Shown: one piece after another, positions 12,059-61,314 of the stretch | How the letters are laid out: each line of letters begins with the position of its first letter | Position numbering within the stretch: the first letter of the stretch is position 1 | Origin: Trypanosoma brucei | Taxonomy: Eukaryota | Length of the DNA stretch: 64,000 nt | NCBI GenBank assembly: GCA_000002445.1 | Contig: AL929603.2 | Span: 320,001 to 384,000 of the forward strand | Reading direction: 5' to 3' | Position numbers and translations under genes: made by a program | The notes under the pieces: generated by a model | Databases searched by the model: none | What the model saw: the letters and a program-made list of their open reading frames with translations, nothing else | What the model was told of the DNA's origin: nothing

Positions 12059-12370
12059 AGGGAGTTGTGGCTTCAATAAGGAACAGAAAATTAAATATAT
12101 TCGTGGATAAAAAAGAGAGAAATGAGGGAGGGGGGAGGAGGAGGAGGGAAAAAAAAAAGGAGTTTTGTTGTTGTTAAGATGCGCTGTGTTTGGATACGGA
12201 GATGAAAACGAGTCTAGTGTATATATGTGTGTGTATGTGTGTGTGTGTAACAAGTGATACGCTTCGTATTCACGCTAGAAATGAGGTTAGTGGAGGAGAA
12301 CAAATTAATCGGGACGGCCATGACTTCCTCTTGAACGTTAACATAAACCGATTAATTCAATTCGTCAGAC

Positions 12371-12431
12371 CAATGAAAAAAGAAAAGAAAAAAGAAAAGA
12401 AAAGAAAAAAGAAAAAAGAAAAAAGAAAAAA
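12371..12431 (+). repeat. Homopurine (GAAAA/GAAAAA)n tract
   Basis: aaaagaaaagaaaaaagaaaagaaaagaaaaaagaaaaaagaaaaaagaaaaaaa with strict purine bias. The complementary homopyrimidine tracts lie at 13830-14000. Confidence 0.65.
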
Positions 12432-13353: not shown

Positions 13354-13390
<37 letters not shown>

Positions 13391-14499: not shown

Positions 14500-14640
14500 A
14501 TTTCTTTTTCTTTGTTTTTGTTTCGTTTTTTTTTAAAAAAAAATAACACCCCCCTCCTCCTTGTGGAGACTGTCCGCCTGACTGCTTTTATTTCATTTTT
14601 ATCCTTTTTCTTTCTCCTTTCTCCCCCTCATTTCTCTTTT
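14500..14640 (+). promoter_or_regulatory. Polypyrimidine tract, a probable trans-splice acceptor region for the homocysteine S-methyltransferase mRNA
   Basis: ctttttctttgtttttgtttcgttttttttt...ctttctcctttctccccctcatttctctttt immediately upstream of ATG 14687. Confidence 0.4.
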
Positions 14641-14686
14641 TAAAATAATAATAATAATACTACTAATAATAAACAATAAAGACAAA

Positions 14687-40260: not shown

Positions 40261-42252
40261 ATGGGTGCCTTTCCGTCTCATGATGCCCCTGAGCTCATAT
40301 ACTCAATGTTAGTTCTGCGTCCATCGACAAATTCTCAGGTTGAGGTTTGCCTGGTGCCTCTTCTGCCGCGTTTCTTCAATGATGGGCACAAAAAGGCGAA
40401 GAAGAAGCTCAATGAACTTCTCGCCAGCAAAGGAGCGCATCAATCGTCACTAGCGGCGTCACTTGCCCCTCGAGCCCCAGCGACTATAGCTCCAGGGAAG
40501 GTTCCAGATCAGGGAATCGGTCACGCCTTAGTGGACTACTTCATTTCCAGTACGGAGGGATCCTTTTTTGTAACCACAAAGGATGCCGTAGTTAGTAAAG
40601 TGGCCATACAAGCGGAGCAAGGTCAAAGGGAGAGGTCTGACATCAGCACTACTGGAGGAAGATCCGCACCAGGTACCGCCTCCACAGGTGAGACACAACC
40701 CTCCAATGCACCATCTCATACGGCGCATCATTCGTCATCCCACCAGGCAATGTCCAACTCTGTGCGGCCGGTGCCATTTGCCGTTTGTATTGTGGATTCG
40801 GATGTCTCCACGGGAACTCCGGGCACCACTGGAGGGTCCGCACAAGCGGCAGCCGCTAAGCACCATCATGTACATGCCAATAATGTTGTCCTTATCAAAG
40901 GGCGGCGGCTGCAACTTGTTGGCTTTATTGCATGTTGTATGGATCGCCCTGTGCGACACATGACCACGGCAAATCCTGTCAAACCACATGGAGCTAGCGG
41001 TGGGGCGGGAGCAACCTCTGGAGAGGGAAAGAAGCAAGGAATCCCTGTCTGTCTGGATGTTATTTTTGATGATACAGAGGCACATGGGTTCCTTACCGAG
41101 TCTGTAGTGTTGTTGGCATCATTTGCCTTCCGCAAGCAATTCTTGAATTGTTGTGCTCTTCACTTTCGGGCCGGGGATCCCGATGTGGAATCATCATTTG
41201 GGCGCCACATGGACCCCTTGCAGCTTCGACTAGTGATGAGGCATGACAACTATCGCATTTTACGCCTGTTTCATAGCCGGTACCCCCTGTTAGACATGGT
41301 CAAAGAGCTTCGCGTAAGCGGGGGCTCGTCGGCCCCGCAGTTCTCTCTCTATGAAAACGATGGAAATGAGGTTGGTTTAGAAGTGACGTTTGGTATGAAT
41401 TTTTTAACGCGGTGGATGCGGTTTGTGGAGAAGATGATGCACGTTGAGACGGTGGTTGGTAACCACATCCGTTGCGGTACCACCGCCATAATGTCGGAGC
41501 GAGATAAACTAATACAGGAGCGCAGGGACAGTGGCGCATTCCTGGAGGAGGAGGAGGATGATGAGCGAATCTTTGGGGGAGCCGTGTACGCCGTGTCGCT
41601 GAGGCGGTGGACTGCTGCAGAGAAGCAGGCGGTTCAGCAACAACAGCAAGTTCCATTGAGTGGAGCATCTCCCATGTATGTGTATCCCACTACCGCTGCT
41701 CCTGGTCAGTACTGGCCACAGATGTCCGTGATGATGGGGCAACCTCCAGGGTGGCCCACTAGTGTTGTTCCTTTGAGTGCTGCTGCTGCTGCACCGACGG
41801 CCGTGGCACCGGTGATTGGGCAACAACAACCATTTGTTATTCAAGCATCAGGGACGCGACCGCAATTGTACTACGCGTCGCCGCAACCGACTGTAAGTGG
41901 GAACGCCACTTTTGTTACCCAGAGCGGTATTCCGATAGTACAGCAAGCAGCGACGGCGTCTCCATTTGGTGTTGCGGCAACACAACCCGCCTCTGGGCAG
42001 CAGATCGTATACGTCATGCAGGGCGCCCAGGCAACTTCCGCTAGTGTTGCAGCCCCTACAGTTTCGGCTATGGCGCCTGGCATGACTCCTCAAGCATTTT
42101 ATTATCCCCAAACTACCGCCTACGCTGTTCCCTACTCTCCATACGGCTTTCAGCAGCAACCACAGCAACAATTGGTAACACAAGCGACTCATATTGGCAC
42201 TCAACAACAACAACAGCAGGTGACATCGGCGGGGCAAGTAGCTCAACAGTAG
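40261..42252 (+). CDS. Member 1 of a three-gene paralogous family. It has an MGxxxS N-terminus (N-myristoylation-type) and a Gln/Pro/Ala-rich C-terminal low-complexity tail.
   Basis: MGAFPSHDAPELIY... Shared blocks with the 47865 and 54878 genes are PVPFAVCIVDSD, GRRLQLVGFIACCMD and FLTESVVLLASFAFRKQF. The C-terminus is poly-Q/A/P. Confidence 0.6.
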   Translation: MGAFPSHDAPELIYSMLVLRPSTNSQVEVCLVPLLPRFFNDGHKKAKKKLNELLASKGAHQSSLAASLAPRAPATIAPGKVPDQGIGHALVDYFISSTEGSFFVTTKDAVVSKVAIQAEQGQRERSDISTTGGRSAPGTASTGETQPSNAPSHTAHHSSSHQAMSNSVRPVPFAVCIVDSDVSTGTPGTTGGSAQAAAAKHHHVHANNVVLIKGRRLQLVGFIACCMDRPVRHMTTANPVKPHGASGGAGATSGEGKKQGIPVCLDVIFDDTEAHGFLTESVVLLASFAFRKQFLNCCALHFRAGDPDVESSFGRHMDPLQLRLVMRHDNYRILRLFHSRYPLLDMVKELRVSGGSSAPQFSLYENDGNEVGLEVTFGMNFLTRWMRFVEKMMHVETVVGNHIRCGTTAIMSERDKLIQERRDSGAFLEEEEDDERIFGGAVYAVSLRRWTAAEKQAVQQQQQVPLSGASPMYVYPTTAAPGQYWPQMSVMMGQPPGWPTSVVPLSAAAAAPTAVAPVIGQQQPFVIQASGTRPQLYYASPQPTVSGNATFVTQSGIPIVQQAATASPFGVAATQPASGQQIVYVMQGAQATSASVAAPTVSAMAPGMTPQAFYYPQTTAYAVPYSPYGFQQQPQQQLVTQATHIGTQQQQQQVTSAGQVAQQ

Positions 42253-44121
42253 ACAGTGGTGGCACCGCGCAATTTTTTTTTTTTGTGGTAACGCCACACC
42301 TTATGGGTGTTGTTATGTACTTGTTGTTATCCCTATTTATTTATTTTTTTATTTATTTATCACGTGTGAAACGGGGTATTTTTGTCATTGCCCCATAACA
42401 CGTGTGAGTGTAAAGCGGCTGTGGCTCTGATTGTTTGATGCCAACGATGGAACATTTGGTGCGTATGTGGGGGGCAAAAAACAAACAAACAAACAAACAA
42501 ATAAACTAATTAACGGAGTAAATACGGGTGGGTCGAGAGGGTGAAGTGGGCAATCGGTAGGAATGGAAAAGGAAAAGAGACGAAGTACGTTTGTACATGC
42601 AACTTGCTTTCACATCATACCGATTCTCTATCCCCCGTAAATGAACTAATAATATAAATAAAATCATTAAAAAGAGAAGAAGCTAGCCAAAAAAAAAAAT
42701 GATATACATATATATATATATATATATATTTGAGGGGGGGGAAAAAAAAGTATATACATAAGTATATATGTGCGGTGGAGGTAAGTGCGTGTACTTCGTG
42801 TATATGTGTTTGTGTTTGTGTTTGTGTACATGCCCCTCTTCCCTCCCTCCCCCTCCCTCCAAAACAAACAAACAAACAAACTTATATATATTTTAGCTAA
42901 CATTGTTGTGAGTAACGAAGTGAAGGGTGCGAATAACGAATGGCCCGTCGTACAGAAGCGCGTGGAGGGGAGGCATATGAAATATATGATTAAGGGAAGG
43001 AACAGGAAAAGGAAAAGGAAAAGGAGGAGGAGGAGGAGGAGGGAAATAAGAAAAAAAAAGAAAAGGAAAAAAAAATAACTCAATGGTGAGATGTGGCGGT
43101 AATATTTCTGCATTGGCATGGGTGTTTGTGTGCATGTGACAGAGGGTTTAAGGTAAAGTTGCTGTTTTTTTTTTCTTCTGTTTTCTTTTATACAAAAGTG
43201 GAAAGGGACAGGAAGGAGAAATTAGTTTTGTGAGAACACCTGTAACATCCGGGCGCGTGCGTTTGTGTGTGTCTGTTTTGTGCGGAAAACAGAAAAAAAA
43301 AGATAATTGAGGTAAATGCACAAATATCAACTAATGGATATCTCACCATCATCATCATTATCATTACCATTTTCATTAGCAACGTTATCGCCATTTTTGG
43401 TAACACCCTCATTTGTAATGGCAGCTGTTTTCACTCTGAGTTGAGTTATTTCCTCCCTTTTCAATGGCGCATATATTAAAACCGCCGTTGCCATCGCCGT
43501 TGCCGTTGCCGCTATCATCATTGCTCTCTTTTTTTTTCTCTCTCTCTCTCTTTCTCTCTCTCTCTGCTTTTCGTAATGAACATTCCTCAAAATGTGATTA
43601 TAGCTGAATATTCGTGTGCCTTTTACCTCAGTGGGTGTCAAGCTTCCGTCACAAGTAAGAAAGTAAAAAAAAAAGAGAAGGAATACATCACTAATTTTCT
43701 TTTTTTCTTTTTTTTTCTTCTTCTTCTTCCTTTTATCGGGGTGGTGATGTTCACGACTTTCCGAATGTTTCTACTTTTTTAAAAAGAAAAAAAAACAACA
43801 ACAATATTTTATGTTCTTCAATCATGTTCTTTTTTTTTTTTCTCTCTCTCTCTCTCTCCCTCTCATCCTCTTTTTCGTTTGTTTTATCTTCTTTCGTTTG
43901 AATTGCTGCTTCTTCATTTATCCTATCTTCTTGTTTGTGTTTGTTTCGGATTTTTGTTTTGTTTGTTTGTTAAACAGAATCACACTTTTCAGCGGTTATG
44001 CATTTTTGTATCTCATTAAATTTCCTCTTTGTCTCCCTTTTGTCTCTCTTTTTCTTTTCTTTTGAATTTGGCTTCAGTACACACTTTATATTAGAACATA
44101 TCATATTACAAACACATACAA

Positions 44122-44156
<35 letters not shown>

Positions 44157-46884
44157 GTATTTATCAACTGAAACGAATTTCCCTTCCATCTTCTTGCGAA
44201 ACTTCCTCACATGGATGCAGCCTTTGTGCGTGGATGATAAATACGTGAATACGTTCGCTTATATTCAATACATAAGCGGGTGCAATTGTCGTTGTTGTTG
44301 TTGTTGTTTGTGCACGCGTACATGAAACATTTTCTCATTATTATGTGCTTATGTTTCCTTTCCTTTCCTTTTCTCTCTCCCTCTTTTCCGCACGCGCACA
44401 CAAACATGCACATGAATATGCGCAACATCTTATTAAATATGATTGCTGGAGTTGTTTTATATTAATAATTTTGGTCCCCTTCCTTTCTCTTCATCTCCTC
44501 CTTGAGTAAATGGATAAATTCCATTTTATACACTATGTAAGGTTTAATATATAAATATATAAATAAATATATATATATATATATATTAGAAAAAATGAAA
44601 GGAAGGAGAAGGCAGCGAAAATAAAAGAATAGAAGAGAAAAGATAGGAGAGGAGAGGAGGAGAAGGGGGGAAAAAAGAAGAAATTAAGAAAAAAAAAAGT
44701 AAAATGTGATAATTATAGAAGAATGAACAGTGGTGTCCGAGCCGGAATGTTAAATAGTCCAATTGATGTGAGAGAGAAAGTAAGAGAAAGAGAGAGAGAG
44801 AGAGAGAAGTCCTAGGATTTCAAACAACATCATTCATGGGATATATAGGAAGCCAAAAAAAGGAACATATTTGTCTTTTGTCTTTTGTCTTCTTTCTTTG
44901 GAAAAAAATAATAATTCATCATTGCCTTATATATATATATATCACTCAGTGATCACGTAAGCTAATGATGAAAAGGGAACAAATGCATTTCATCGGCACC
45001 TCGCCTACGAGAAACCCGGAAGGTTACGCATAACCCGACTCAAGAAATTACGGAATTATCCAGTGGGAAGGAAAAAGCAACAACAACAACAACAACAACA
45101 AAACAACCACATGTAACTCAGGACTCAATACTTTACAAGTGAGGAAAAAAAATAAAAATAATTACAAACTTAAGTTTTTATTGGAGGACCGGCTTTGGAA
45201 GCCGTCATATCGAAAGACCGCCATCTTTAGTTTTCCCCTTTTGTTTGTTTGTTTGTTTGTTTTTGTCCCTCGGAAAGATGAGTTGAAACTCACTTCAACA
45301 ATATCATGTGCCCAATACTTTCCATTACCATAAGAGAGAAAGAGTGAAAGAGAGAGAGAGGGTACTCTAAGTTATTATGCATTGTAGTTATATATTTATA
45401 TGTACATTAATATTAATATTAATATTTTTGTTATTTAATTTATATATTTATATATATTTATATATTCATGTTGGTCTGTTGGTATCCATGCAAAACCGAC
45501 CCGTGCATGAAATGTGGACTTTCATAACATAATATAAACTCAAATTCGGTACTGGTTGCTTGATATTACGGTAACGCATTTACTGCCAAAAGGCGAACAA
45601 TTCTCTGAAGGAAGAAACAAATATAGGCGCATGCATGCAAAAAAAAAAAAACAACAACACAAAAGAGGAAAATATGGCTTCAGGAAAAGAGGCACGGAAG
45701 CGAATCAAGAAGAAAAATAAAAATAAAAAATTAGAAAGTGGGTGGGAAGGGGCGAAGAGAAATATTTCTATTAGTGGTGAATGTTATGTAGATATGCACT
45801 CAGCAGAGACATTAATATAGACATGTGAAAAAATAAGTAGGTGTGTATACAATAAATATATATATATATGTGTGTGTATATGTATGTATATATATGTATA
45901 TAAATGTATATGGTGGTGCGTGTTATAAGAGGAGGAGGTTTAATAGTGTGGGATTTGTACAGTTGTTTCTCTCTTATCAATTCATTCGTCTGTTTCTGTG
46001 TTTTCCTCTCACCATGTATCGATAAGACGGGAATTGTCACCCGAAAGTTTGTTAATGCACTTGTTTTCTTTTTCTTTTTTTTTTTACTTTCTCGCATTTT
46101 CTGTAGCCCAGTGCCACTTCGACTACCATTACTATTATTATTATTATCAGTAGCAGTAATAGTAGTAGTAATATCAATATTTGCTTTGGTGTTATTAAAG
46201 TTGATATGTTATGAGTGTTGTGATTGTGACTGTTAAGATTTAATTTCTTGTTTCCCCTCTGTGAGTGTATTTTTATATATTATTATCATTGTTATTTTAA
46301 TCTGTAATCTCTTTGTTTTATTTATGTCTCTCTCTCTCTCTCCCTCTTTGTTTGTCTCTTTGTTTTACGTCCACTTCTTCAATTCGTTTCTTCTTTCACT
46401 TTCCCTTTTTTTTTTCGTAAAAAAATTGTGTCCCTTCCGTTTAACCACGCAATTTTCTGTTGTGTTTCACTGCATTGCATTCACATTTGACGGGGTTAGC
46501 CGGAAGGGAAGTGAAACACACAAGAAAACAAAAGAAAAAGGTAAAGTAAAACAGAAAAAAAGAGTAAAGGGAAGTTATTTATTTATTTTTATTTTATCTT
46601 CTGTTCGTATTTGTCGTCCGCGCGACATTCGGCGTTTGTTTTTGTGTGCGCGGTTTTGGCTGTTAGTTTCATATCCAGTCGGATCCGTTCAGTGGCGTGG
46701 CTGTGCGAAAAAGTTTAAGGAGGAGGAGGAGGAGGAGGGGAAGGAAAAAGAAGAAAAGAAAAATAAAAGAAGCAAGAACAAAAACAAAAAAGAAAAAGAA
46801 GAGGAAAGAAAAGGGGAAAGGGGCGCGGCTCATCTGCACTTTTACTCCATTGCATTCGCCCTTTAAAAGAAAAAAAAAGAAAAG

Positions 46885-46911
46885 AAGGGAAGGGAAGGGA
46901 AGGGAAGGGAA
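46885..46911 (+). repeat. (GGGAA)n pentanucleotide repeat inside an A/G-rich block (46700-46925)
   Basis: gggaagggaagggaagggaaggga. Confidence 0.6.
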
Positions 46912-47864
46912 AAGAAGGAGGAAACAAAAAAGAAGAAAATTCCTTTATCCCTTTCTTGTGCCATCGTCATCGCAACACTATAAACAATAGGGAACGTGTG
47001 TAAACCTTTTCTCTATCTCTCTCTATCTCTCTCTTTTTTATTATTATTATTTTCTTTGTTCCATACAAACACACAAGCCGACTTAACATAAGGCAGTTGG
47101 GGCGGAAGCCGCGGGCACCACCACTGCTGTAGTTGTTTTTTTTTAGTTTTTCTTTGTTCTTTCGTGTCTTATCTTATTTTAATTTACTCTTGTTTTTTGT
47201 TTTAGTGCTTTTTTTCTTTGATTTATTGTTCTTGTCGGCACCGTTATTGTTATTGTTGGTGCTACTCCCAGTGGTGCATTACTTTGGACGAGGCAAAGTA
47301 GTCCATTTTTTTTTAAAAATTATTCCTCCTCTTTGTTCTCTTTCTTTTATTTAATTCATATTTTTTTTTACTATTTGTTACCGTTATTATTTGTTTATTT
47401 GTTGTTTCCATTTATTTTAATTTACTGTCCTGTCATTCACTTTCTTTACGAAGGTGTAAGTTGGGAAAAAACGTGCGCACGGGAGAGAAACAGAAATACA
47501 AATACATACAGAAGTTAGGGGAGAAATAAATTAAAGCAAAAAAGAAAAAAAAGAGAAGAAACAACAGAACGAAACAGAAGAAAAACGGAAGGGGAAAAAG
47601 AACAGAATTAAGTGACAACACAGTGAGAAGAAGGAGTGAAAGCGAAAAAGGGGGAAAACAAACAGTAACAAAGCAAAAGAAAAAAAGAGTGAAATTCTCT
47701 GCTTAATAAAAAGCAAGTGTATATAACATATATATCTGTATATATATATATATACCTATAATTTGTTTATTTATTTATATATTTGTCTTGTTATTGTTAT
47801 TGTTATTTTTTTTATTTTTGATTACTTTGCCATTGATATATATATATATATATATTTGTTAACA

Positions 47865-49622
47865 ATGGGTGGTATTCCTTCACGCGACGCGCCTACTACA
47901 TTGTTTTGCCTTCGGTACGGCACCCATGAGGTAGGACTCATTCCCCTCGTGTACCGCTACTTTCACAGTGATAACAAGGAGTTGCGAGAGCAGTTTGTGC
48001 GGGTGCGTAATGATCCGAGCATACGCTACAGCTTCATGCGTAGCCCCGAGTATCGTATGGATGAAATACCAAAGAAAGTGTATACAGAGAAGACTCTGGA
48101 CAAGTTCCTTGATGTTATCGATGAATCACTTTACGATTCCACAAGTGCGATGCTCGCAGATGAAGACGCGCCATTCCGGCCCGTTCCTTGCGCCGTTTGC
48201 TTCGTGTATGTTAATGGTCGTGAGGGATCTGATTGTTTTTCATTCTATGGCCGCCGCATTAATATCATTGGTCACTTTGGCTGTTACGAATCCGAGGATA
48301 GGGTTAGTGAAGGCCCATGCCTCCACGCCCGAAAAACTATTTTGAAGGCTGCGGGTGATCGCACGCTGGAGCGTGTTGTTACACTGGCCGCTATGATGCT
48401 CAAAGGGGAATTCTTCCGCGCCGTTCAAACGGTGTGCCCCACGCGGGACCCACTGGCAATGTTAAAGCGCCGACTGAATCCCTTGATACTTGTCGCCTCT
48501 ACACCATGGAACAGTTACCCCACCTTGAAGTTTGTTTACGATACCGCCGTTATTGCATGGGCGTATGGAAAGGAAGTCGTTGAGGCGGATCCGCCGCGCC
48601 TCTCCATGTACGAAATTGAACAAAGCGGTGAGGGTGGCTTATGTATGCGAGTCAGTGGCTCGGTGCTTTTGTGGGCTGTTATGCGCGTGTGTGAGACACT
48701 TACGCTTTCTGCAGTGCGTGGATCCTGGGAGCAGTACGTGCTGGATGACTTTGAGATGCAGCAGAAGGAAAAAATTGTCTCCCAGTGGCTTTCCACAAGC
48801 CCACATGTAAACAGTTTCCTCGGGTCAGAAACATTCACCGACCTCGTACAGAAACGACTGGCTACTCTTCTGCGGGAAGTTGTGCGCGCCCGTGAGACCC
48901 CGACAGAAGACACAACGCTGTGGGGTGAATCACAGGAGTATAGTCATGATGGAAAACTCTACCGTATCTTCAATTCCCCAACTTGCGGCCCTTTCCTTGC
49001 AACTGTGAAGAAGAAGGTGCCTAAGCGGGGAAGCAGCGCCAACACCGGCAATGCAAGTATTACAAGTGCAACTGGTGGTGACTCAGCGAGTGACCGGCGC
49101 TCCAGTGGTGTTCACCTCACGGACTCACCCAGCAGTGGTGGAGAAAATAAATCCCGCAGCTCCGGTCAGGGGAACCCCCGATCCAAAAACAATGGCAACC
49201 AACCTTCTGGTTTCCCCGCACACAACAATGCTGGTCAGCCCCCGCAGTACAAAGATGCTGTCAATAGTGTTCTCCAGTCGCAGTTCGCAACAGCTGCGCA
49301 GCGTGTCGTGTATCAAATGCCGCCTCCCGTCGGCAAAACCTCTCAGGGCCAAGTGTCCGTTTCCCCTCAGATGTCACCGCAGTTTGTACCGATGTTTCAA
49401 ACTGCACCTCCGCCACCCATGCAGCAATTTAGCGTTCCATATGTTGTAATGGCGCCACCCGAGTCACAGCCGCAGCCGCAGCCGCAACCTCAACCTCAAC
49501 CACAACCCCAAATGGGAATGGTGTTCCCAAGCACTGTTGCAAATTATGTGCTTTTGCCAGATGGGCGGGTCGGAATGATCAACGCACCAGCGCCCCCCAC
49601 TATGGGCTTCTGGGGTCAGTGA
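47865..49622 (+). CDS. Member 2 of the MGxxxS/Q-rich paralogous family
   Basis: MGGIPSRDAPTTLFCLRYGTHEVGLIPL... Shared blocks are PVPCAVCFVYVNGREG, GRRINIIGHFGCYE and TLERVVTLAAMMLKGEF. The tail contains a (PQ)n run. The track ORF begins at an upstream non-ATG start; the first ATG is 47865. Confidence 0.6.
   Translation: MGGIPSRDAPTTLFCLRYGTHEVGLIPLVYRYFHSDNKELREQFVRVRNDPSIRYSFMRSPEYRMDEIPKKVYTEKTLDKFLDVIDESLYDSTSAMLADEDAPFRPVPCAVCFVYVNGREGSDCFSFYGRRINIIGHFGCYESEDRVSEGPCLHARKTILKAAGDRTLERVVTLAAMMLKGEFFRAVQTVCPTRDPLAMLKRRLNPLILVASTPWNSYPTLKFVYDTAVIAWAYGKEVVEADPPRLSMYEIEQSGEGGLCMRVSGSVLLWAVMRVCETLTLSAVRGSWEQYVLDDFEMQQKEKIVSQWLSTSPHVNSFLGSETFTDLVQKRLATLLREVVRARETPTEDTTLWGESQEYSHDGKLYRIFNSPTCGPFLATVKKKVPKRGSSANTGNASITSATGGDSASDRRSSGVHLTDSPSSGGENKSRSSGQGNPRSKNNGNQPSGFPAHNNAGQPPQYKDAVNSVLQSQFATAAQRVVYQMPPPVGKTSQGQVSVSPQMSPQFVPMFQTAPPPPMQQFSVPYVVMAPPESQPQPQPQPQPQPQPQMGMVFPSTVANYVLLPDGRVGMINAPAPPTMGFWGQ
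49463..49510 (+). repeat. (CAGCCG/CAACCT)n coding microsatellite giving a (PQ)n run in the 47865-49622 CDS
   Basis: cagccgcagccgcagccgcaacctcaacctcaaccacaaccccaa. Confidence 0.7.
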
Positions 49623-51901
49623 GCGAAGCTTCTGCGCTGCGGAGAGTGGGGGAAGTGTTTTTCTTTTTTTTTTATTTTTTTACTCTTTTTATTTTTATGT
49701 TGTTGGTGTTGTGTTATTATTATTATTATTAATCACTGGCAGTGTAAATATGTGCCTGGTTACGTCGGTATTGGTGTACGTATATAAACATATATATATA
49801 TGTATTCGCTTTGTTACCCGCATTCTTCCACTTCAAGAAGGGCAAAAAGGAAGAGAAATAAAAGAAGAAATGTAACTTTGTGTTTTGGTTTTTATTTGCC
49901 CCCCCCCCTCCCGGTTTCTTCGCTTTGTCTCTCTTCTCCTGCATACACGTGCGCTATTGTGTTGCGGGCCAAAATGGTGTCATTTGTTTGTTTGTTTATT
50001 TGTTCAGTGTTAAAAAGTTTTCACTGCTTCATCATTTGTAGCTGTGGTGGTGCTTCTTTTTTTCTTTTTCTTGTGTGTGCATATATATATATATATATAT
50101 ATTGACGTTGTTTATTTTTGTTCCGTGCGGTGCCGAGTGACCGCTGTTGTTCCTAACTTTTGGGTAGACATCACTAAAACGCATTTCTACTTTGTAGTTG
50201 CTATCGTTGTTGTTTTTTTCAAAGAAAAATATTTGTTTATTATTACTATTTTTTAATAATATCTTCCAGCAACTGAAGAAAAAAAATAATAATTATAATA
50301 ATATATATTATAATTTAATTATTTATTGGGTTTGATAACTTGTTTGGTACATTTTCAAGGAACCAAAATTTTTTTGTAGAATTTATTTTATTTTATTTTT
50401 TTCGTTTTTTCCCCTTAAATTGAAGTAAGAAAGGGGACAAAGAGGAAGAAAAAGAAAATAAAATGAGGGATAAGGTCAAAATAAATAAGGGAGCGTTGAA
50501 ATTAAAGAAAAAAAATATGTATTTTTTCGATACCTCTCATAAGTCTTCTTTAAAAAAAACGAGACCCATGTTATTTAATAAAACAATTCAGAGAAAACGA
50601 AATGAGAGAAGAGGGGTAAAAAAAAGAGAAAGATACAAAACGCCATTTCATTGATGGCAATGTGTTGAGTGAATGGGACATTGCATTTTTATATTTTTTT
50701 TAAAAAATATATATATTAAATGAATGATAGTTAGCGAAATGAAGCAGAAAGAAAAAAAAGAAAAGAGAAGAGGAGGTAGAGGGAAGAGATGATATTAATA
50801 ACCGACCATTGTAAGAAAAGTGAAGAAAAAGGAAAAAGAAAAGGCATTGTGTTATTGCAGAAAAGACACAAACATGATGCCGTGTAGAGGAGGAAAATAT
50901 ACTCCAAAATAATAATTAAAAAAAAAAGGAAGAAGCGCTGTGGCACCTACGCAATCACATTTATAAATACCTAAATATTTAAATACAAGACAAATCAAGC
51001 GACACATGTATATTTGTATTTAATGTATTTATAATATATTTGTTTATTTATATATACGTATACATACATACACGAATGAACAAATAAACACAGAAATATA
51101 TATATATATATATATATTTATTTATATTTATATTTATATATATACACGCATACTTAATAACAAATACCCCAGAGGAACATGGTTTCACGATTGTCAGCCT
51201 TTTCCTCGTTATTTTATCTTTTTTTTTTTTTACTACCAAAATACTGAGAACCCCCGCCGATTTTGTATTTCTTTTTTAAAATTTCATGTTTACCATCGTC
51301 ATGATGTTTATTTATCACTGCTACTAATTATTATTGTTGTTGTTGTTGGTGTTGGTGCTGTTGGTTTTTTTTATTTTCTTTCGTTGTAGCTGCGTAACGC
51401 AAATCGTTTTGTTTGTTGATTGTGCCCCCATTTTAATATATTTTCTTTTTTCCCCTTTTTTACACTGTTTTTTTTTGTTTGTGCTCCCATAATTTTTTTC
51501 AATGATTGTTTTTTATTTTTAAATTTCTTGTTATTATTGTTGTTGTTACTATTTTTTCTAAATTTATTTTGCGGACATATTTATATTTCAATATTTAATG
51601 CGTCCATTATAATTATTATCACTGGTTTCATTATCACCTCGTCTTGTTTTTTGTCTTCGTCATGAATCTGCGGACGTATTTCTCATAATGTCCAAAATAA
51701 ATAAATAATAGTAATAATATTAATATATATATATTAATATTGTGTGATGCGTATTTCTATCTCTTATTTTCAACTTGTAAAGAGAAGGAAAAAGAAAAAA
51801 AAAGGCAACAAATCTGTAACATGCATTACTCCTCGTAGTAGTAGTAGTACTAGTAGTTTTTTTTCCCCCAACCAGCTCCCGTTTTTGGCCGTTATTTTTA
51901 A

Positions 51902-51903
<2 letters not shown>

Positions 51904-51956
<53 letters not shown>
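51904..51956. repeat. (TTA)n microsatellite, about 17 units
   Basis: ttattattatt... is uninterrupted for about 53 bp. The 51744 and 51770 ORFs on opposite strands decode it as poly-I/poly-N artefacts. Confidence 0.8.
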
Positions 51957-52355
51957 TTGCTCCTCATCTACATCTTTTGTCGTTGTTATTGATGTCTTTT
52001 TTTTTTGTCTCGTGGAGGGCAGCAAAATAATAATTAAAAAAAAAATAATAATTTTAAAAGAAAAAACAAAAACACAACACAGAGCAAAAAGGAAAAAAAA
52101 AGAAAGAAAATGGTAGCGGGGAATCGTGTTGGGGTTTAAGCGAGAAAAAAAAAATAATAATTCCAAGCAACAGCACCAACAATATTAGTAGTAGTAATAA
52201 AAACAAACAAAAAACAAATATCTCTTTTTTTTTTGTCTTCTTAAAAAGTTGTGTGTATAAAAAGTTCCTGCACGCGGATGTGGACCTCCTTCCTCGTCCC
52301 ACTTCTCGTATTTTATTACTATTATTATTGTTATGATTGCCATCATATATATTAC

Positions 52356-52393
<38 letters not shown>

Positions 52394-54877
52394 CCTGCAC
52401 ATATGCTCCGAAACATATATGAATAAATACAAAAAAAACTAAATATTTATTATATATTTATACATAATTGTTTTCATCATGTTTTAACACTTCCAATATA
52501 AATGTGAGTGATTTTATTTTATTTTTTTGACGTGTACGTGTACGTGTATTCAATTTCCTTCTAACGAAATGAAATGAATGCCCTTGAAAAAGAGAGAGAA
52601 GTGAAATAAAAAAAACAAAAAAATTGAAGTAAATGGGAGGGCTGAAGGGGTCGTGTACTCCTAATTTTAATTTTAATTTCTTTTGTTTTGTGACTTTTTG
52701 TTGTTGTTTTCGTCGTTTTCTTTCCTTTTCTTTTTTTTGTTAAAGCACCCGACGCCGCGTGTAATGACGCAGTGGGAAGCAGTGGTGTAAACAATTCCAA
52801 GAGAGCAAAGGAGTTGAAAAGTGGAGCAACAATAAATAAATATAATTTGTAAAATTATTGTGTGACGAAACAAAACAAAGCACAACAAAACGGAAATAAA
52901 ATATATATGTATGTAGATATATATATATATATATATTGAGTAAATGAGTGAATACCCCTCTTTTTTTTTATTTTATTTTTTTGAGTGTGAGGAGAGAGGA
53001 GAAGGAATATTAATGAAGGAGCGGATTGTTTTCTAGTTAAACAAAAAAAATTATATAGAAACTGGTAGAAAACACACGGGATGGAAATTGAGCGGTAAAA
53101 ACTTGAGAAGAGGACGAAGTTTTAAGAAGGATATGCGAGCGATGTACATTTCATTTTATTTTTTGATTCTCTTTTATTACTATTATTATTTTTACTTTAC
53201 TTTTTTTTCTTTTTCTTTCTCTTTTTATATCTTATATGATTATTAATATTTTGCCTCTTTTTAATAGAGGTTCATGCAGCGCATTCGCCTTCGTTGGTGC
53301 AGTTCTTCATGATCAATTCGTAAATCTCAACCCGCCGCGTCACTTTTTTCCTCCCATTTTGTTGTGTTTGATTTGAAAGGGGGGAATGGGGTAAAAATTA
53401 GAAGGAGAGCCATTGTGTTGTTCATTCGCAAGTGTGTTGTTATTAAAATTCAACTTATATATATTTCTTTATTTTTCTGTATATTTTTAACGCATTTTTA
53501 CTTTTAAATAAATAAATAATATATATATATATATATATGACTATTGATTTTCTCCTCCTTATTTGGTCGTTGTTGATACTTGTATTTCTTTTTTTTTTTT
53601 TGTGTGTGTGGTTTGTTCGTAAGTTTAACTCATCCTCTGTTACCATTACATATGTGTGTTTGTGTGAAGGAGTGCGATAGAGCGAGAAGGAAACAGAGAG
53701 TGTGTTTGTGTGCATTTGAAAGAAAGACAAAAATAAAAAGCAAAGCGAAGAGGGTGAGAGTATATATATATATTATTATTATTAAACCAACAATAAAAGA
53801 GGGAAAGTGGGGGAAGGTAATGGAAGTGTGAAATGTTGTCGTGCATGAAATTTCGAAGATATGCGTACGATCTAATTTTATGTATTTGTGTTTGTTTACA
53901 CGCGTGCGTGACATAAGTAAATGGAAGTGTGGGATGGGACATGGACAAATAATTGCCATTTGAAATATTCGTTAATTGCATCCCACCCTGTCCAATTCCT
54001 TTTGTGGCGCTCCGTGTCCTGCTCAACTCCATCCCCTTTATTTTATTTCTTTTTTGTCGTTTATTTTATTTTATTTCAGGCCCATTGTCAATTTCATTTA
54101 TGCTCTACGTGTTAGCTCTACTAATGACTTTGCAATGTCTTCATGTTTCATAACCCTTATTGGTTTTATCATTTTTACTGAATCACTTACTCGCTGTACA
54201 TCACTCTGTTTCTTCTTCTGTTCTTATGTTTTTTCTTTTTTGTTTATTTATTTATTTATGAAACAACAACAACTACAATCATGAACAGGTCTTAAAGTCA
54301 CTCCAGGGGTGTGAAAAAAGACAAAGTAAAAGAGGGAAAGAGAAATAGGTCTTTTCGCTCTTTTTTTTACTTTTACTTTTGTTTATTTTTCTTTTTCCAT
54401 TTCCATAAAGGAAACTGTCATTTATACGAGAAAGACAGGGGAAACCCAAATAAAGGAGGGAAAAGAAACGTGATCATCGAAAAACAAAATAATAAATCTT
54501 TTTGTCATTGTTTCTGCCTAACCTTTAGCGAGGTTATATAACGCTAAAGTGCAGAATCAGAGAAGAGGCTGAGGGGGAAAAAAAAAGAAAAAAAATACCG
54601 AAACGGGGAAGACAAAAGAAAAGAAAGATAATAATAATAATAATAACAAGAACAAGAACAAAAACAGGGAAGCAAGAGAACCGAGTGAGGAAAAGGGTAA
54701 CTTTGTGACAGGAAGGACCTTACATCAAAGGGGAAACACCTTTAGAGAAGAAAACGTTGCTGTAATTTCGCATTTGCCACACGGAAAAGTGTAGCAGACA
54801 AGAAAACGAAACAAGCAACAACTACGAGCACAAACACAACAAACGGCAAACAGCGACGGTGACGGTGACGAACAAAT

Positions 54878-56872
54878 ATGGGAGGTGCGCCTTCTCGGGA
54901 GGCGACAGTTGTGTACTCGTATCTGCGAGGTACGTATGAAATTGGCCTCATTCCCCTTACAAGTGCTTTCTTTGGCCGGCCGTCAGGACGGGGGGAACAT
55001 GAAGGGGAAAATGTGCTACGGGGGCATTTCTTACAGATGCGGGAGGATCTCTTCGCGGCCTGTACACTCCCAACCCGAAACAAAGTGCTCTCATGGACAG
55101 AAATCGTGCCCAATCGATTTACGGGGGAGGACCTTGACGCGTTTTTGGAAATTGTGGACAAGCGGCTCTACCCAACAAATGCGGCAATGGTAGCAGATAA
55201 AAATTCTCCACTTCTCCCGGTCCCATGTGCTGTTTGTCTTGTCTGCAAAGATGGTCGGGAGCGCCGTGGCAGTTTTCGCTGGCGCGGGCGGAACATTGTC
55301 ATCATCGGTTACTTTGGATGCATGGATGAAAAGCTTGATGCGGCTTTCAAAACAGAGAAACGCACGCCACGCCAGGGGATGTACAGCATCACTGCCGCTG
55401 TATTTCCCTCTATTGGTGATCGTACGTTTGACCGCGTTCTTGCCTTAGCACCAGTGATGCTTCGGGGGCAGTTTGTGGGATCTGTGTTGCAACTCCGTAG
55501 GGGAGGAGGGGAATTCGCAACGCCCTTGAGTGAGCGTGGGGAAATGGTTGATGTCTCTAGTGAGGCTCCTTCGCTCGGAGCGGGAATTGGTGGAGTGGTA
55601 GGGCAATCAGATGGATTGATTCATGAGGATTCTGCAGTTGACAGCGCCTTCGAAATGTTCGTGGAGCGCGTCTCCCAGATGTCTGTATTCGTTGAGGTGG
55701 TCTCGGATAACTACTCGTCACTGAAGTCTCTAGTGGAAAATGTTGCCTTCATCCAGATTCATACACAGGCGGAACCTAAACAGTGTACGCTTGATCTTCC
55801 TCCAATCGTTCAGAACGCCTTTAATCGCACTACAACTGCGAGCAGTTGCGAGAAGAAAGCTGACGCGGAGGGTCACCATGCAGAAAAGTCGCCTCCACAA
55901 CGTTCATCTGCCATGGAACAGGGGTCTTCTTGTTGCACCGTGCAAGGAGTAAGCTGCTCGTTGGAGCGCGATGATTTAACCGATCTGTCCAGTGTGGAGC
56001 CTGAAGGTTCATCTCACTTAAGTAAAGTGCCAACGGAGGATGGTGGTAGTTTTCACTTCTGTACAGAGATAGTTCGTGTTCATTTCAACGAGAGATATGT
56101 GTCCCTAGCCATCCAGTGGCTCTCAAGTTTCTTCCGAAAACCAACCTTGCTTGAGAATGGTTATTGGGTACACTACTGCCTGAAAAAGGAAGAGGAAGTG
56201 ATACGCAGAATACTCTGCCATCGCGATACTATTGTCTCCGGTTGGCGAACGTCTCACCCCGAACTCGCTAATCAATACATGGGTGACGGCACGGACAAAC
56301 TACTGGAGCACGTACGGATCCTTCAGCACGAATTACAACAAGCCCGCAAGGCTGCAGAAGAACCTACACTGCGTAAAAAAGCCAGTACGCCTCCCACTCT
56401 GCCGTGTCCGAATACCACTTCAATGGCAGTGTTGGCACCACCCCCTCCGCCTCATGTGATGCCGTACGCCGTGCCTCCTCTTCCGTCACCGGTTTATTTT
56501 GTTCAACAGCAACCTGTGGGAAACCCCATGTTTGTGTCGTTGCTTCCTTTTCAGCAAGTGCAGCAGGTTCCACAAGTGCAACAGATCCCACAATTTCAGC
56601 AGGTGCCGCAAATTCAGCCACTGCAACAGATTTCGCATGTGCAGCAGATCCCTCAATTGCAGCAAACCCAACCGGTACAGTCGATATCGCATGTTCAGCA
56701 GATTTCGCATGTGCAACCGATTCATCAAGTGCAGCAAATCTCACATGTGCAACCGATGCCATTGTACCACCTCCAACCACCTGAATTACAACAGCCCTCG
56801 GTTTGTTATCTTCCCTTTGGGGATGGAGGAGCTCTACCCCCAAGTTATGTCATTCCAAGCTCGCTGTCGTAG
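54878..56872 (+). CDS. Member 3 of the MGxxxS/Q-rich paralogous family, with an 18-bp periodic hexapeptide repeat in its tail
   Basis: MGGAPSREATVVYSYLRGTYEIGLIPL... Shared blocks are PVPCAVCLVCKDGRE, GRNIVIIGYFGCMD and TFDRVLALAPVMLRGQF. The tail reads QQIPQFQQVPQIQPLQQISHVQQIPQLQQTQPVQSISHVQQISHVQPIHQVQQISHVQP. Confidence 0.6.
   Translation: MGGAPSREATVVYSYLRGTYEIGLIPLTSAFFGRPSGRGEHEGENVLRGHFLQMREDLFAACTLPTRNKVLSWTEIVPNRFTGEDLDAFLEIVDKRLYPTNAAMVADKNSPLLPVPCAVCLVCKDGRERRGSFRWRGRNIVIIGYFGCMDEKLDAAFKTEKRTPRQGMYSITAAVFPSIGDRTFDRVLALAPVMLRGQFVGSVLQLRRGGGEFATPLSERGEMVDVSSEAPSLGAGIGGVVGQSDGLIHEDSAVDSAFEMFVERVSQMSVFVEVVSDNYSSLKSLVENVAFIQIHTQAEPKQCTLDLPPIVQNAFNRTTTASSCEKKADAEGHHAEKSPPQRSSAMEQGSSCCTVQGVSCSLERDDLTDLSSVEPEGSSHLSKVPTEDGGSFHFCTEIVRVHFNERYVSLAIQWLSSFFRKPTLLENGYWVHYCLKKEEEVIRRILCHRDTIVSGWRTSHPELANQYMGDGTDKLLEHVRILQHELQQARKAAEEPTLRKKASTPPTLPCPNTTSMAVLAPPPPPHVMPYAVPPLPSPVYFVQQQPVGNPMFVSLLPFQQVQQVPQVQQIPQFQQVPQIQPLQQISHVQQIPQLQQTQPVQSISHVQQISHVQPIHQVQQISHVQPMPLYHLQPPELQQPSVCYLPFGDGGALPPSYVIPSSLS
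56560..56770 (+). repeat. Coding tandem repeat with an 18-bp period, about 11 degenerate units of (S/P)HVQQI, inside the 54878-56872 CDS
   Basis: Units are directly visible: cagcagatttcgcatgtg / caaccgattcatcaagtg / cagcaaatctcacatgtg ... Confidence 0.7.
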
Positions 56873-59800
56873 TGATACATAGTGAGGAAATAAGAAAAAC
56901 AAAAAAAATGGATGAACGTGTGTAGTTCCATACCATGACTAGAGGAGCTGGAACGGCTCGTTCTTGTTCTTTTGATTTTTTTTCTTCCTTTTTATAAAAT
57001 TTTTAATTTTGTTGTTTTCTTTTTCTTCCCTGTTCTTCCTCTTGAAATGGTTAATTACCTTCCACTAGGATTGCTGTTTTTTGCCCTCTCAGAAGGCGTT
57101 TTTTTTTCTTTGTGCGCTCTGCTCGCATATTCGACATGTCCATCCTTTTTAGTTTTGCTTATAAAATGAGGAAAAAAGAAAATGAAGACTCGTTTCTCTT
57201 TATGTTTTTGTTCCTTCTGTTTGTGTGTGTTTGTTGTTGTTGTTGTTTTTGCGTGATTTTATGTGTGTGTGGGTAGTTGTTTTTCTTTTTCTTTTTTTTT
57301 TGCTGCTTTCGAAGCATTACGACTTGTAGCTGAGCGTTAAAAGCGAATGATTATTATATTATTATTATTATTCCCTCCTCTTCCTACTTGTCTTTGTTCG
57401 GCGGGTGTGTTTCTCCGTCGTGTTTCCTACTTTTTTTTTTGTGTATGTGTCTGTGTGTGTCTTTTTTTTTTTCCTGCTTCAAATTTGCTGCAGACAAATA
57501 AACAGAGAAAATAAAAGAGATGGTCATCTTCTCTTGTTGTTGTTTATTGTGATTCATTTTTTGTTTGTTTGTTTGTTTGGGGGAAGTCCGCGGATATGTA
57601 GAACAATTATGTTTTTCTTTTTTTTTTTGCTTAAGAAGTGGGAAGTAGTTTTTTTTTTTTCTGCTTTTGGTTGTTTTGATTTCCTGTTTTTGGTTGTCTC
57701 AGCCTTGCGTCCATTTGGATCAAGATAACACACAACTTCTTATTTGTCTTGTTTTTTGTTACTTTTTCGTTTTTTTATACTTTTTTTTTTCTCTTTTACT
57801 ACTTTCTCTTCCTGTGTTCGACTTTTTTTTTTTTTAATCTTTGTTTTCTTTTTTTGTTTGTTTATTTATCAGTTGTGCTGTTCTGCTTCATCTCATTTCT
57901 GCGGCTTTTCACACTTTTTTCGGTCATTTTTTTTTTACTTTGATTTACTTTTTTTGTCTGTTTTTTTTTCCCCCTTTCCTCCCTCCCCCCCTTTTCCTTT
58001 TCGGTGTTTTTTATTATTGTTATTATCATTATTATTCTTACGCCTATGGCTTTCATTTATTACTGTTTCACTGTTATTCTACACAGTGTTCTGCTATATC
58101 CCTTGCGTCGCAGGGAGTGACAACACATTTATATATATATATATATATGAAATATACAAATAATTATAAATATATATATATATATATATGGTCGTGTCTG
58201 AAATTGTATGTGCCTGTTCAGGGAGGAGCGTGAAAAAAAGAAAAAAAAGAAAAAGAAGGGGGAGGGAGAAAGAAAAAAAAGAAATAAGGAAGGAAGGAAG
58301 GAAGAAACAGAGAAGGAACAGGAAAGAAAGGAAAAAGCAAATAAAAAATGTACACATAAATACGCACGTCTGCATGCGTTTGTTTTGTGGTTTGTTGAAT
58401 ATTGAGTGCTTGGTTGAGTTAGAAACAAAACAAAAATAAAAATAAAAGGTGATGGAGATGGAGATGGAGATGGGGTTGGAAACTACAAAACAGACAGACA
58501 TGCAATCATGCGTGTGGTGCGTATTTATATTTATTTATTTATATATATATAAATATATATTTATTGATATATATTTTGACTTATGCACTTAGGCATATTT
58601 ATGGTGAAAGAACAACAACAACAACAACAACAAAAACAAAGTACAAAAAAGTTCTTTTTTTTTTCTTTTACTTACTTACTTAATTTTTCCTTTTGAGACG
58701 CGCACGCACACATGCCTCGCGTGCAGAAAAGAGGTTGCTCCAGTCGCCCCACCCCGCTGGAATCCGTCTGTGAAGCTTCAGGCTGCTGTTTAAGTTCCTG
58801 GTCGTAATTTTTTTATTCGTGTCTCTTCTTCTTTTTGTTTTTCTTTTTTCTTTTTTTTAAATTCCATTTTATTCGGCTGGGCCGCGCATTGTTTTTGTTT
58901 GTTTTTTGTTTTCTTGTTTGTTTGTTTCGGGTCTTGTATAATTTTAGTTGTGTTGTTGTATCATTTGTTTGTTTGTTTTTCAAACCTCCAACACGTGTTC
59001 CTTTTTTTTTTATTTATTTTTGCGTCCTCATGAGACCCCGCACCGCACCGCCATCACACAAATAATAAATAATAACAATAATAATAAAAAAAGAAAGACA
59101 AAAAGAAAAAGAAAAAGGAAAAGAAAAGAAAAAATATATATCTTTTGACATGAACACACATGCCGGCGCACGGTCGCCTTATTCCAACATAAAGAGAGGG
59201 GAAAAGGAGGAAAAAAAAAAAGAAGAAGCGTATTCCCCACTGGGAGAAGTAAATCCAAGTAAAAACACGAATAAAAAAAATATAACAAATGAATGGGAAG
59301 TGGGAAAAAGAAAGGGAGGATGAGGAAAGTGAAGAAAGAAAGGAAGAAAAGAAATAATTTTCCTTTTTTTTAAAAAAAAAGGAAAAGGAAAGGAAAGGAA
59401 AGCGGAAGAAGAAGAAGAAAAAGGAAATGAAATTTAAGTTTAAATTTAAACGAAGAAAATGGAATGATATAAAGATGGAAGTGTAGTGTTTGTTGCGCAT
59501 ACGGCGGTATGGGAGAGAAATTTGAGAGGAAAATTGATTAAGTGAATTAAATAAGAAGAGAAGGATTAATAGATATATATATATATATATATACATATGA
59601 TGGAAGGGAATGATGTGAAACGTGAAACTCGTGCGTTTTTTTTGTGTGCTTGTTTATATGTCTTTCCTTGTTTTTCTTTTTGTTTTGACTTGTCTCGCTG
59701 TGGCGTGACGGGAGTTTGTAAAGGCACTTTTTCCCCGTCATTATTATTGTTATTATTATTATTATTATCTATTGTTATTAGTATTCCTATTCCTATTTCT

Positions 59801-61314
59801 ATTCCTACTACCGCTATCATTATTATTATTATTCATACTATTCCTATTGCTACTACTATGATTATTATTATTATTACTATTATTATTATTGTTATTGTTA
59901 CTATCATTACCCCTCGTTTGTATTTATACTCATGAGTACAAATACATCCACTATTCACACATTTATATATATTTATATATTTACATATATATATTTATAT
60001 ATAAATATATTTCTGCTTGTGTGCTCGTTTCTTGTGTACTGCACTGGAATAGGAGGAAAACAAAAAAAAGCTGCAGATAAAGTGAAGAAAAGAAATTTTT
60101 TTTATTATGGAGGGGAGAGGATAAAAATAGCAGTGATCATAATGAGAACAATTTTTTTTTCCTAACAGAACAAAGCAAAAAAAAAAGTGCGTAATTAGGA
60201 ACAGTGAAGAGGAGGGGGGGGGAAAATAAATAAATAAATAATAATAATAAATGAACAGCACCGCATGAAAACGTGTGAAATGTTGGTGTCTTTTTCTTCC
60301 TCCTTTTTTGGTAAAGGAGTGTTTCCACGTGTTCCATACTTCCTTTCCAATATTTTTCTTGCTTTTTCTTTTTTTTTCTTTTCTTTTCTATCCTATTTTA
60401 TGGTTCATGTTTGTTTTTTTCATTTTCATTTTCATTTTCTCTCTTTCTCTCTTTCTCTCTCCCTCTGCGTGTGTGCGCTCATTTGTGTGTTTGGACTTGG
60501 ACTTGGACTTGGATATGACGTTATTTTAAGTGCTTTTTTTTCTTTCTTTTCTTTTTTCTTTTAAAATATTTGGTTGGTTGCGGTGTTTTTTCGTTTTGAT
60601 AAATTGGGGCTTAAGTACGAAAAAAAAAAAGGATGACGATCAAGTAAGTGAATGAATTAACAAAAGAAAATAAAATGAAAATAAAATAAAATGTATCAAA
60701 CAATTTTAAAAAAAATGATCGGAATGGTGAATTCTTTTTCTTTTTTTTTTCTTGATATATACTTCACTTCGATTTCTTATTTTTATATCAGTTATTATTC
60801 ATACAAAAAAAAAGTGAAAATAAAAATGTCGAAAGGAGGAACCCTGAATGACGGGAGCAACTTCCGTGATTTTGTCTTTTTTTTTCCCACTTTTCGGGAA
60901 CAACAACAACAAAAAGGAGAACAGAAAATGAAAAAAATGAAAAATAAAATGCAAGTGATAGTGATAATGATGATGATGATGATGATAAACAATAGTGATC
61001 ATTAGATCTTTGATTTTGAATTTGAAAAGGAGAAAGAATTGGTAATTGCCAAGCAAAAGGTTGGGACATTGCCGGTTCAAGGGGGAGGAATAACAAAAGT
61101 AAGTTAAATTCAAATGAAAAAAAAAAGGAGGGGGGAAAAAGTTGAAAGGAAAAATATTGGAAACGTATCCACAAAGTTTTTTTTTGAAATTTCCTCTTCA
61201 TTTATCTTTTCACCATTTTATTTAATTTTTATTTTGTATCATTACTTCCTTTCTGTTGCCTCATTATCTCATCTCACATACACGTTTCTACTTTTCTGTA
61301 TTTTCATATTTAAA

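Follow-up and report, generated by a model that had tools for sequence, protein, structure and literature searches.

An 18-nucleotide coding repeat with a period-3 hydrophobic pattern in the C-terminal tail of the Trypanosoma brucei protein Tb927.1.1500

The closest described counterparts of the element considered here, a tandem hexapeptide array in the C-terminal tail of a Trypanosoma brucei protein, are other oligopeptide repeats. PrP and Sup35 carry short tandem units (PHGGGWGQ and PQGGYQQYN, respectively) in disordered regions; the units contain Q and P and, in PrP, also His, and their number is polymorphic and modulates the prion behaviour of both proteins. Lineage-specific oligopeptide repeats with periods that are multiples of three nucleotides, such as the (QP)n of T. 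brucei Tb927.1.1470, are likewise located in disordered tails. The 27-kDa γ-zein of maize, a secreted storage protein of the endoplasmic reticulum lumen which is cross-linked via Cys residues, has an N-terminal hexapeptide repeat, (VHLPPP)8 or (PPPVHL)8. This repeat adopts an amphipathic helical form and associates both with itself and with lipids (PMC4097401). The array analyzed in this work is encoded on a 64,000-nucleotide stretch of T. brucei DNA (contig AL929603.2, positions 320,001 to 384,000 of the forward strand), hereafter called the window, to which all coordinates refer. It lies within the open reading frame (ORF) 54878–56872 (+ strand), the third of three paralogous genes in the window, which represents the coding sequence (CDS) of Tb927.1.1500, a 664-aa protein annotated as “conserved protein, unknown function”.

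The array consists of exactly 11 units of 18 nt, located at 56558–56755 (+) in the frame of the ORF and coding for aa 561–626. In order, the units read VQQVPQ, VQQIPQ, FQQVPQ, IQPLQQ, ISHVQQ, IPQLQQ, TQPVQS, ISHVQQ, ISHVQP, IHQVQQ, and ISHVQP. A first-pass annotation of the window, which had described about 11 imperfect units at 56560–56770, was accurate in this respect, and the hexapeptides it listed are the same units in a shifted register. Tandem Repeats Finder identified a period of 18 at 56555–56604, 56561–56618, and 56622–56751, with scores of 60–69. Nucleotide identity of the array at lag 18 was 0.628, as compared to 0.365 ± 0.037 in codon shuffles (z = 7.0; 0 of 20,000 shuffles), and none of the 20,000 codon shuffles matched this value at any lag from 3 to 60. 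At the protein level, identity at lag 6 amounted to 0.517 versus 0.209 ± 0.046 in shuffles (z = 6.7; again 0 of 20,000). The codon and amino acid shuffles rule out chance or compositional bias as the source of the periodicity, confirming the 18-bp rhythm noticed in the first-pass annotation as real and as exceeding anything due to composition.

The array is thus confirmed as an in-frame coding tandem repeat with a period of 18 nt in an expressed gene. Because orthologues are conserved (in T. b. gambiense, T. congolense, T. vivax, T. cruzi, and others) and the product was detected by mass spectrometry (11 peptides, 73.6 kDa, class “unknown”, in a proteomics supplement; PMC8051951), Tb927.1.1500 is considered a real gene. 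Four ORFs of 83–159 aa overlap the array in other frames (56364–56843 and 56486–56737 on the – strand, 56404–56784 and 56499–56882 on the + strand); these are stop-free by-products of the low-complexity composition and not genes. Two sub-families of units can be distinguished. Units 1–3 (56558–56611, +) follow the pattern φ-Q-Q-φ-P-Q, with φ standing for a hydrophobic residue, and show pairwise differences of 3–6 nt. Units 8 and 9 (ISHVQQ ISHVQP; 56684–56719, +) together with units 5 (56630–56647, +) and 11 (56738–56755, +) make up the ISHVQx sub-family, whose members differ from each other by 2–5 nt, mostly at synonymous sites.

What is invariant in the array is not histidine but the recurrence of a hydrophobic residue every three positions. 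An 81-residue stretch, aa 552–632 (FVS to YHL; 56531–56773, +), conforms to a period-3 hydrophobic stripe, (φ-x-x)27: V, I, L, F, M, or Y starts 26 of its 27 consecutive triplets, while hydrophobic residues occupy only four of the 54 other positions, the spacer residues being Q, P, S, and H. The triplet pattern was equalled by none of 200,000 shuffles. The hydrophobic moment of the stripe shows a single sharp peak at exactly 120 degrees, with a value of 0.498 as compared to a shuffled maximum, taken over all angles, of 0.189 ± 0.029. Gln accounts for 26 of the 66 residues of the array (39%), Pro for eight (12%), and the aliphatic and aromatic residues V, I, L, and F for 32%; charged residues are missing, as are Gly, Asp, Glu, Cys, Asn, Tyr, and Trp. 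The array forms part of a disordered, nearly uncharged P/Q-rich C-terminal tail (aa 507–664; 56396–56869, +), for which an AlphaFold2 run based on a 31-sequence family alignment predicted no secondary structure, at a predicted local distance difference test (pLDDT) score of about 33. The 169 residues from aa 496 to 664 comprise 34 P, 34 Q, and only five charged residues.

Compared with the γ-zein repeat, the T. brucei array is likewise a tandem hexapeptide (11 versus eight units), and the likeness extends to aliphatic residues, to a Pro-containing uncharged context, and to His, of which γ-zein has one per unit. As in an amphipathic polyproline-II helix of the γ-zein type, the hydrophobic residues of the stripe fall on one face at 120 degrees. 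The high Pro content is not shared, γ-zein having 50% Pro and the array 12% Pro with 39% Gln. Unlike γ-zein, Tb927.1.1500 has no signal peptide, carries a myristoylation consensus, and is reported to be cytoplasmic (reticulated). There is no sequence relationship between the two repeats, and a polyproline-II conformation of the T. brucei array is a prediction from its pattern of residues. The array differs from the PrP and Sup35 repeats in lacking Gly, Tyr, Trp, and Asn and in consisting of aliphatic or aromatic residues to one third; unlike PrP, it has His in fewer than half of its units and no Gly after His. With lineage-specific oligopeptide repeats the array shares, besides the period and the disordered location, its absence from close orthologues and differences between strains in whole units. 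It is an ordinary repeat of this very common kind; mildly unusual is the period-3 amphipathic pattern in a Gln-rich context.

In one respect the array is unlike a typical lineage-specific repeat: its units differ from one another as DNA, with synonymous positions randomised, whereas the peptide pattern has been preserved. The 18-nt signal, when resolved by codon position, had z scores of 7.0 and 6.1 at positions 1 and 2, and of only 1.6 at position 3. Identical residues one unit apart used the same codon in 17 cases, with 14.5 expected from local codon usage. Nei-Gojobori comparisons between units yielded proportions of synonymous differences (pS) of 0.63–0.78, which is near saturation, and of nonsynonymous differences (pN) of 0.05–0.31. 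The ratio pN/pS was 0.08 for the ISHVQx units, 0.19 for units 1–3, and 0.40 overall; being derived from units of six codons, these ratios indicate a direction and are not a measurement. Since third positions are randomised, pS is near saturation, and pN is low, the data point to old units in which selection, or at any rate a strong constraint on residue class, has probably preserved the peptide rhythm. The suggestion in the first-pass annotation that the repeat has arisen recently conflicts with these values. The codon-position analysis and the pN/pS ratios rule out recent minisatellite expansion or homogenisation, and because its units have diverged at the DNA level, the array is not an actively expanding minisatellite. 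It provides a natural example of fully diverged DNA copies with a preserved peptide rhythm, and may serve as an argument that the order of residues in “low-complexity” tails can be under selection.

The array is restricted to the Trypanozoon lineage. In the T. congolense orthologue (P0002), the flanking anchors that enclose the array in T. brucei, namely PVY-x-x-Q-x-QPVG-x-PM upstream and a Cys-Tyr motif downstream, are separated only by PVVTVPQTPPQFPM, and the array is likewise missing from the orthologue of T. vivax (P0038). Among 20 family proteins examined, including two Trypanozoon alleles, the array was absent outside Trypanozoon paralogue 3. Period-3 amphipathy, when tested in 20 family proteins, was likewise shown only by Trypanozoon paralogue 3 (two alleles), and was rejected as a family-wide property of the tails. 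As the first-pass annotation had stated, paralogues 1 and 2 lack the repeat; paralogue 1 (40261–42252) ends in a Q/A-rich sequence with Q5 and Q6 runs, and paralogue 2 has (QP)7Q at 49467–49511. A search of 5.8 billion proteins with the 81-aa stripe returned 37 candidates sharing words with it, none of them with E ≤ 0.01, but the search also missed the cluster containing the stripe itself, so that its sensitivity is doubtful.

Other repeats were observed in the tails of relatives. Instead of the array, T. congolense P0002 has a basic motif of 11 residues, TEPTTRRR-x-x-x, repeated roughly three times nearer the start of the tail (aa ~495–540), a relative derived from Logan (P0033) has a Q-rich pentapeptide repeat (QLQVQ-like), and (QP)n is present in the tails of paralogue 2 and of P0041. 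The tails of the family appear to acquire unrelated repeats independently.

The first-pass annotation had also surmised that the repeat may vary in length, and variation between strains was indeed found. Tb927.1.1500 has 664 aa in strain TREU927 and in T. equiperdum OVI, which share the sequence, and 652 aa in T. b. gambiense DAL972 (P0001) and in a T. b. equiperdum genome (P0007). Alignment of the DNA with the corresponding loci (L001, L002) located the difference to a 36-bp segment of two units (56678–56713, +) which is present in TREU927 and T. equiperdum OVI and missing from DAL972 and T. b. equiperdum. The difference is in register, the remaining array is identical, and equivalent deletions may start anywhere from 56678 to 56680, corresponding to 2 nt of microhomology. 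That the segment was duplicated recently in TREU927 is unlikely, since no more than 19 and 25 of its 36 positions agree with the adjoining sequences. The short allele, which has lost two of the five His residues of the array, would fit best with a deletion joining unit 7 to unit 9, although the polarity of the change is unproven because the outgroups have no array. Two array alleles are known, the cluster of paralogue 3 at 90% identity comprising three sequences. Apart from the length difference, 17 of 1995 sites distinguish the TREU927 and DAL972 haplotypes; the array contains none of these, with 1.7 expected. As a marker on T. brucei chromosome 1 whose length changes in steps of 18 bp, the array separates at least two haplotypes within Trypanozoon; its practical value is small.

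Four of the 11 amino acid differences between TREU927 and DAL972 fall within six residues, NERYVS versus SKTYVA (aa 404–409; window 56088–56102), in a strand-helix region that was modelled confidently. The tails of the two other paralogues also differ between strains. The (QP)7Q of paralogue 2, which is situated 10 residues upstream of a conserved C-terminal motif and hence in a position comparable to that of the array in paralogue 3, is shorter by one QP unit in DAL972, i.e. (QP)6Q, and the C-terminal Q6 of paralogue 1 (42202–42219) corresponds to Q9 in DAL972 as well as in three contigs assembled from public reads. All three paralogue tails are length-polymorphic. The 3 kb downstream of the gene (56873–59872), when aligned with positions 11960–14959 of the DAL972 locus L001, gave 538 mismatches in 2438 aligned columns and 1124 gap columns, which suggests intergenic rearrangement or insertion, or an alignment artefact; this comparison was not used.

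Functional data on the tail are available from a genome-wide tethering screen of 2014, in which λN-fused fragments were subjected to repression selections (Erben et al., PMC4055773, Table S4). For Tb927.1.1500, the fragment beginning with nt 1632 (aa 545), 16 residues upstream of the array, was represented in two of the repression selections and showed 6.0-fold enrichment in each, and one starting at nt 1191 was enriched 3–4-fold in all three experiments; a fragment starting past the array, at nt 1902, was not enriched (0.55-fold) (PMC4055773). These values are weak evidence that the tail of Tb927.1.1500, array included, can lower the expression of a tethered mRNA. Enrichment in the repression selection was strong, at up to 190-fold, for fragments from the tail of paralogue 2 (Tb927.1.1470) that start at nt 1098, 1347, and 1530, and this paralogue is among the 127 repressors listed (PMC4055773).

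Our preferred reading, held tentatively and at a probability somewhat short of even, is that the array is an uncharged, disordered, polyproline-II-like amphipathic stripe which acts as a weak interaction module or as a linker. Such an array would have originated by tandem duplication of a φ-P-Q-like seed in the Trypanozoon lineage, after the split from T. congolense but long enough ago for synonymous sites to randomise. Selection would later have maintained an aliphatic residue at unit positions 1 and 4, with Q, P, S, or H elsewhere, and whole units would still be gained or lost through slippage in register or unequal exchange. Pro and Gln are known to favour the polyproline-II conformation. 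A polyproline-II (or 3-10) helix is proposed because the three-residue rhythm fits neither an α-helix nor a β-strand; as an extended helix with three residues per turn, the 81-residue stretch would display one continuous hydrophobic face and two polar faces. By analogy with γ-zein, the stripe could engage in self-association or bind a partner through numerous contacts that are individually weak but add up, and it may also serve as a spacer that keeps the end of the C-terminal tail away from the folded domain. Histidine would then be an incidental spacer residue of the youngest type of unit.

Several observations weigh against this reading. The assignment of a polyproline-II conformation depends on the sequence pattern and on general residue propensities, and Pro makes up only 12% of the array, as compared to 50% in γ-zein. 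Within the family only Trypanozoon has the stripe, so that the core function of the family cannot depend on it, and the natural allele without two of the units has no known consequence. The pN/pS ratios between six-codon units are based on few sites and are open to distortion by codon bias. As for the tethering data, the numbers for Tb927.1.1500 are small and noisy, and the protein is not on the 2014 list of reproducible regulators; a fragment from nt 1809, within the array, gave contradictory values of 22-fold and 0.06-fold (PMC4055773). Moreover, the activity of the tail fragments could reside in a C-terminal motif (see below) instead of the array.

The next best explanation, which we regard as rather unlikely, is that the array is neutral filler, a by-product of slippage in a low-complexity linker of which only the bulk properties, i.e. 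disorder, absence of charge, and length, matter. The great differences in length and sequence among the family tails, several of which have their own unrelated repeats, agree with this explanation, as do the restriction of the stripe to Trypanozoon, the occurrence of the two-unit deletion allele in two genomes, and the lack of a counterpart to the repeat in the 5.8 billion proteins searched, bearing in mind the doubtful sensitivity of that search. However, similarity at synonymous sites was lost while the peptide pattern was kept (pN/pS of 0.08–0.40; 26 of 27 triplets), and an array of this age, if it were neutral, should have decayed at the protein level too. The absence of substitutions in the array between TREU927 and DAL972 also speaks against neutral filler, but with only 1.7 expected its weight is small.

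A more far-reaching proposal would be that the stripe is an effector module of the T. brucei group, a Gln-rich amphipathic polyproline-II helix on a myristoylated family with a GNAT (GCN5-related N-acetyltransferase) fold, which mediates multivalent binding, in condensates or to an mRNA-repression partner, and is tuned by the number of units. We consider this quite improbable; if true, the module would link a membrane-anchored acyltransferase-like domain, be it an enzyme or a pseudo-enzyme, to the control of mRNA fate.

It is very doubtful that the array is a prion-like or amyloid Q-rich domain whose aggregation scales with repeat number. The Gln content of 39%, the lack of charged residues, and the influence of repeat number on Sup35 and PrP would agree with such a role. 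The composition, however, with 32% aliphatic and aromatic residues, 12% Pro, and no Asn, Gly, or Tyr, is unlike that of classical prion-like domains; Pro occurs about every eight residues, the longest Pro-free run being 14 residues, the hydrophobic spacing of three does not correspond to the alternating pattern of a β-strand, and AlphaFold2 predicted no strands.

The first-pass annotation had proposed that regularly spaced His residues in a Q-rich background mediate metal- or pH-dependent self-association, which now appears highly improbable. His titrates near physiological pH, the array contains five His residues and the flanking tail two more, and the γ-zein hexapeptide also has one His per unit. 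The spacing is nevertheless irregular: the His residues at aa 587, 605, 611, 616, and 623 belong to only five of the 11 units and are 18, 6, 5, and 7 residues apart, and units 1–4 have none. The position conserved among the units is not that of His, and two of the five residues are gone in the natural 652-aa allele. Metal binding of the PrP octarepeat type relies on a fixed His in each unit and on Gly, Asp, or Glu partners, whereas the array has no such fixed His and, being devoid of Gly, Asp, Glu, and Cys, lacks residues with which a metal site could be completed.

A left-handed β-helix of the “hexapeptide repeats” known from bacterial acyltransferases, in which each coil is made of three hexapeptides (18 residues), is called to mind by the hexapeptide unit and its aliphatic first residue but is effectively refuted by the residue pattern, which does not match the profile [LIV]-[GAED]-X2-[STAV]-X, has its hydrophobic residues at unit positions 1 and 4 and not 1 and 5, and lacks Gly or small residues at the turn positions; Pfam Hexapep was not matched even at E ≤ 1, the model shows no strands at a pLDDT of about 33, and 11 units would amount to fewer than four coils, broken by Pro.

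The family context may be more useful than the repeat itself, given a myristoylation consensus, a GNAT-like fold suggested by modelling, a P/Q tail, and hints at repression by the tails. All long ORFs of the window are located on the + strand, and their products match exactly proteins from chromosome 1 of T. brucei brucei TREU927 in NCBI, where paralogue 3 is entered as “hypothetical protein, conserved” (UniProt Q4GZ71, XP_001218852). The gene identifiers were assigned from the CDS lengths in the Erben 2014 supplement (PMC4055773), which equal those of the window ORFs one by one: 1995 nt for Tb927.1.1500 (54878–56872), 1758 nt for Tb927.1.1470 (paralogue 2; 47865–49622, +), and 1992 nt for Tb927.1.1420 (paralogue 1; 40261–42252, +). 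Paralogues 2 and 3 share 37% identity over the first 200 residues (E = 4e-37), whereas paralogue 1 is more distant (E = 2e-5 to paralogue 2). Searching for relatives of the host protein with a profile, among 1.84 billion representative proteins, yielded 36, and those that could be named are all from trypanosomatids (Trypanosoma species, Phytomonas, and Novymonas). The three proteins are members of a trypanosomatid-only family annotated as “unknown function”. Literature main texts contained no mention of Tb927.1.1420, Tb927.1.1470, or the UniProt and NCBI accessions of the family. For Tb927.1.1500, 6-fold over-representation among survivors of a melarsoprol gain-of-function screen and a TrypTag location “cytoplasm (reticulated)” have been reported, in the single table entry in which this gene appears.

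The N-terminus of Tb927.1.1500, MGGAPSR (54878–54898, +), conforms to the N-myristoylation consensus Met-Gly-x3-Ser, with M1, G2, and S6 invariant in 31 of 31 aligned members. The same start is found in the other paralogues (47865–47885 and 40261–40281), and thus in all three. The family is therefore predicted to carry an N-myristoylation site, lipidation being suggested by the consensus. AlphaFold2 modelled aa 1–506 of Tb927.1.1500 (54878–56395, +) with confidence as the folded part of the protein, the N-terminal half of which would have a GNAT-like fold. In the model, the order of secondary structure elements, as we read it, fits the β1-α1-α2-β2-β3-β4-α3-β5-α4-β6 arrangement of GNAT proteins (RimJ/RimL/NAT9-like), although sequence identity to members of the superfamily is only 4–15%, and Pfam, PDB sequence, and Foldseek searches gave no match for the host protein. 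The residues G180-D181-R182-T183 at the start of a long helix are invariant in the family, but are unlike the canonical acetyl-CoA loop of GNAT proteins, Q/R-x-x-G-x-G/A. To our knowledge, no GNAT combines this myristoylation consensus with a P/Q tail.

A conserved C-terminal motif, N-Y-V-(L/M)-L-P-D-G-R-I-G, was recognized by eye across the paralogue-2 clade, the copy in paralogue 2 being NYVLLPDGRVG (49542–49574), and the paralogue-3 clade shows an echo of it, YVYY-x-P or Y-L-P-x-G-D-G, also judged by eye. In Tb927.1.1500, CYLPFGDGG (56804–56830, +) is possibly a degenerate copy, as indicated when the final 70 residues of 33 members were compared visually; the match to the family motif is weak. 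The motif may represent the real functional end of the variable family tails. The gaps between the three paralogues (42253–47864 and 49623–54877) are each longer than 5 kb, which is unusually wide for a trypanosome polycistron, and contain only ORFs annotated as “hypothetical protein, unlikely” (Tb927.1.1430–1460 and Tb927.1.1480–1490).

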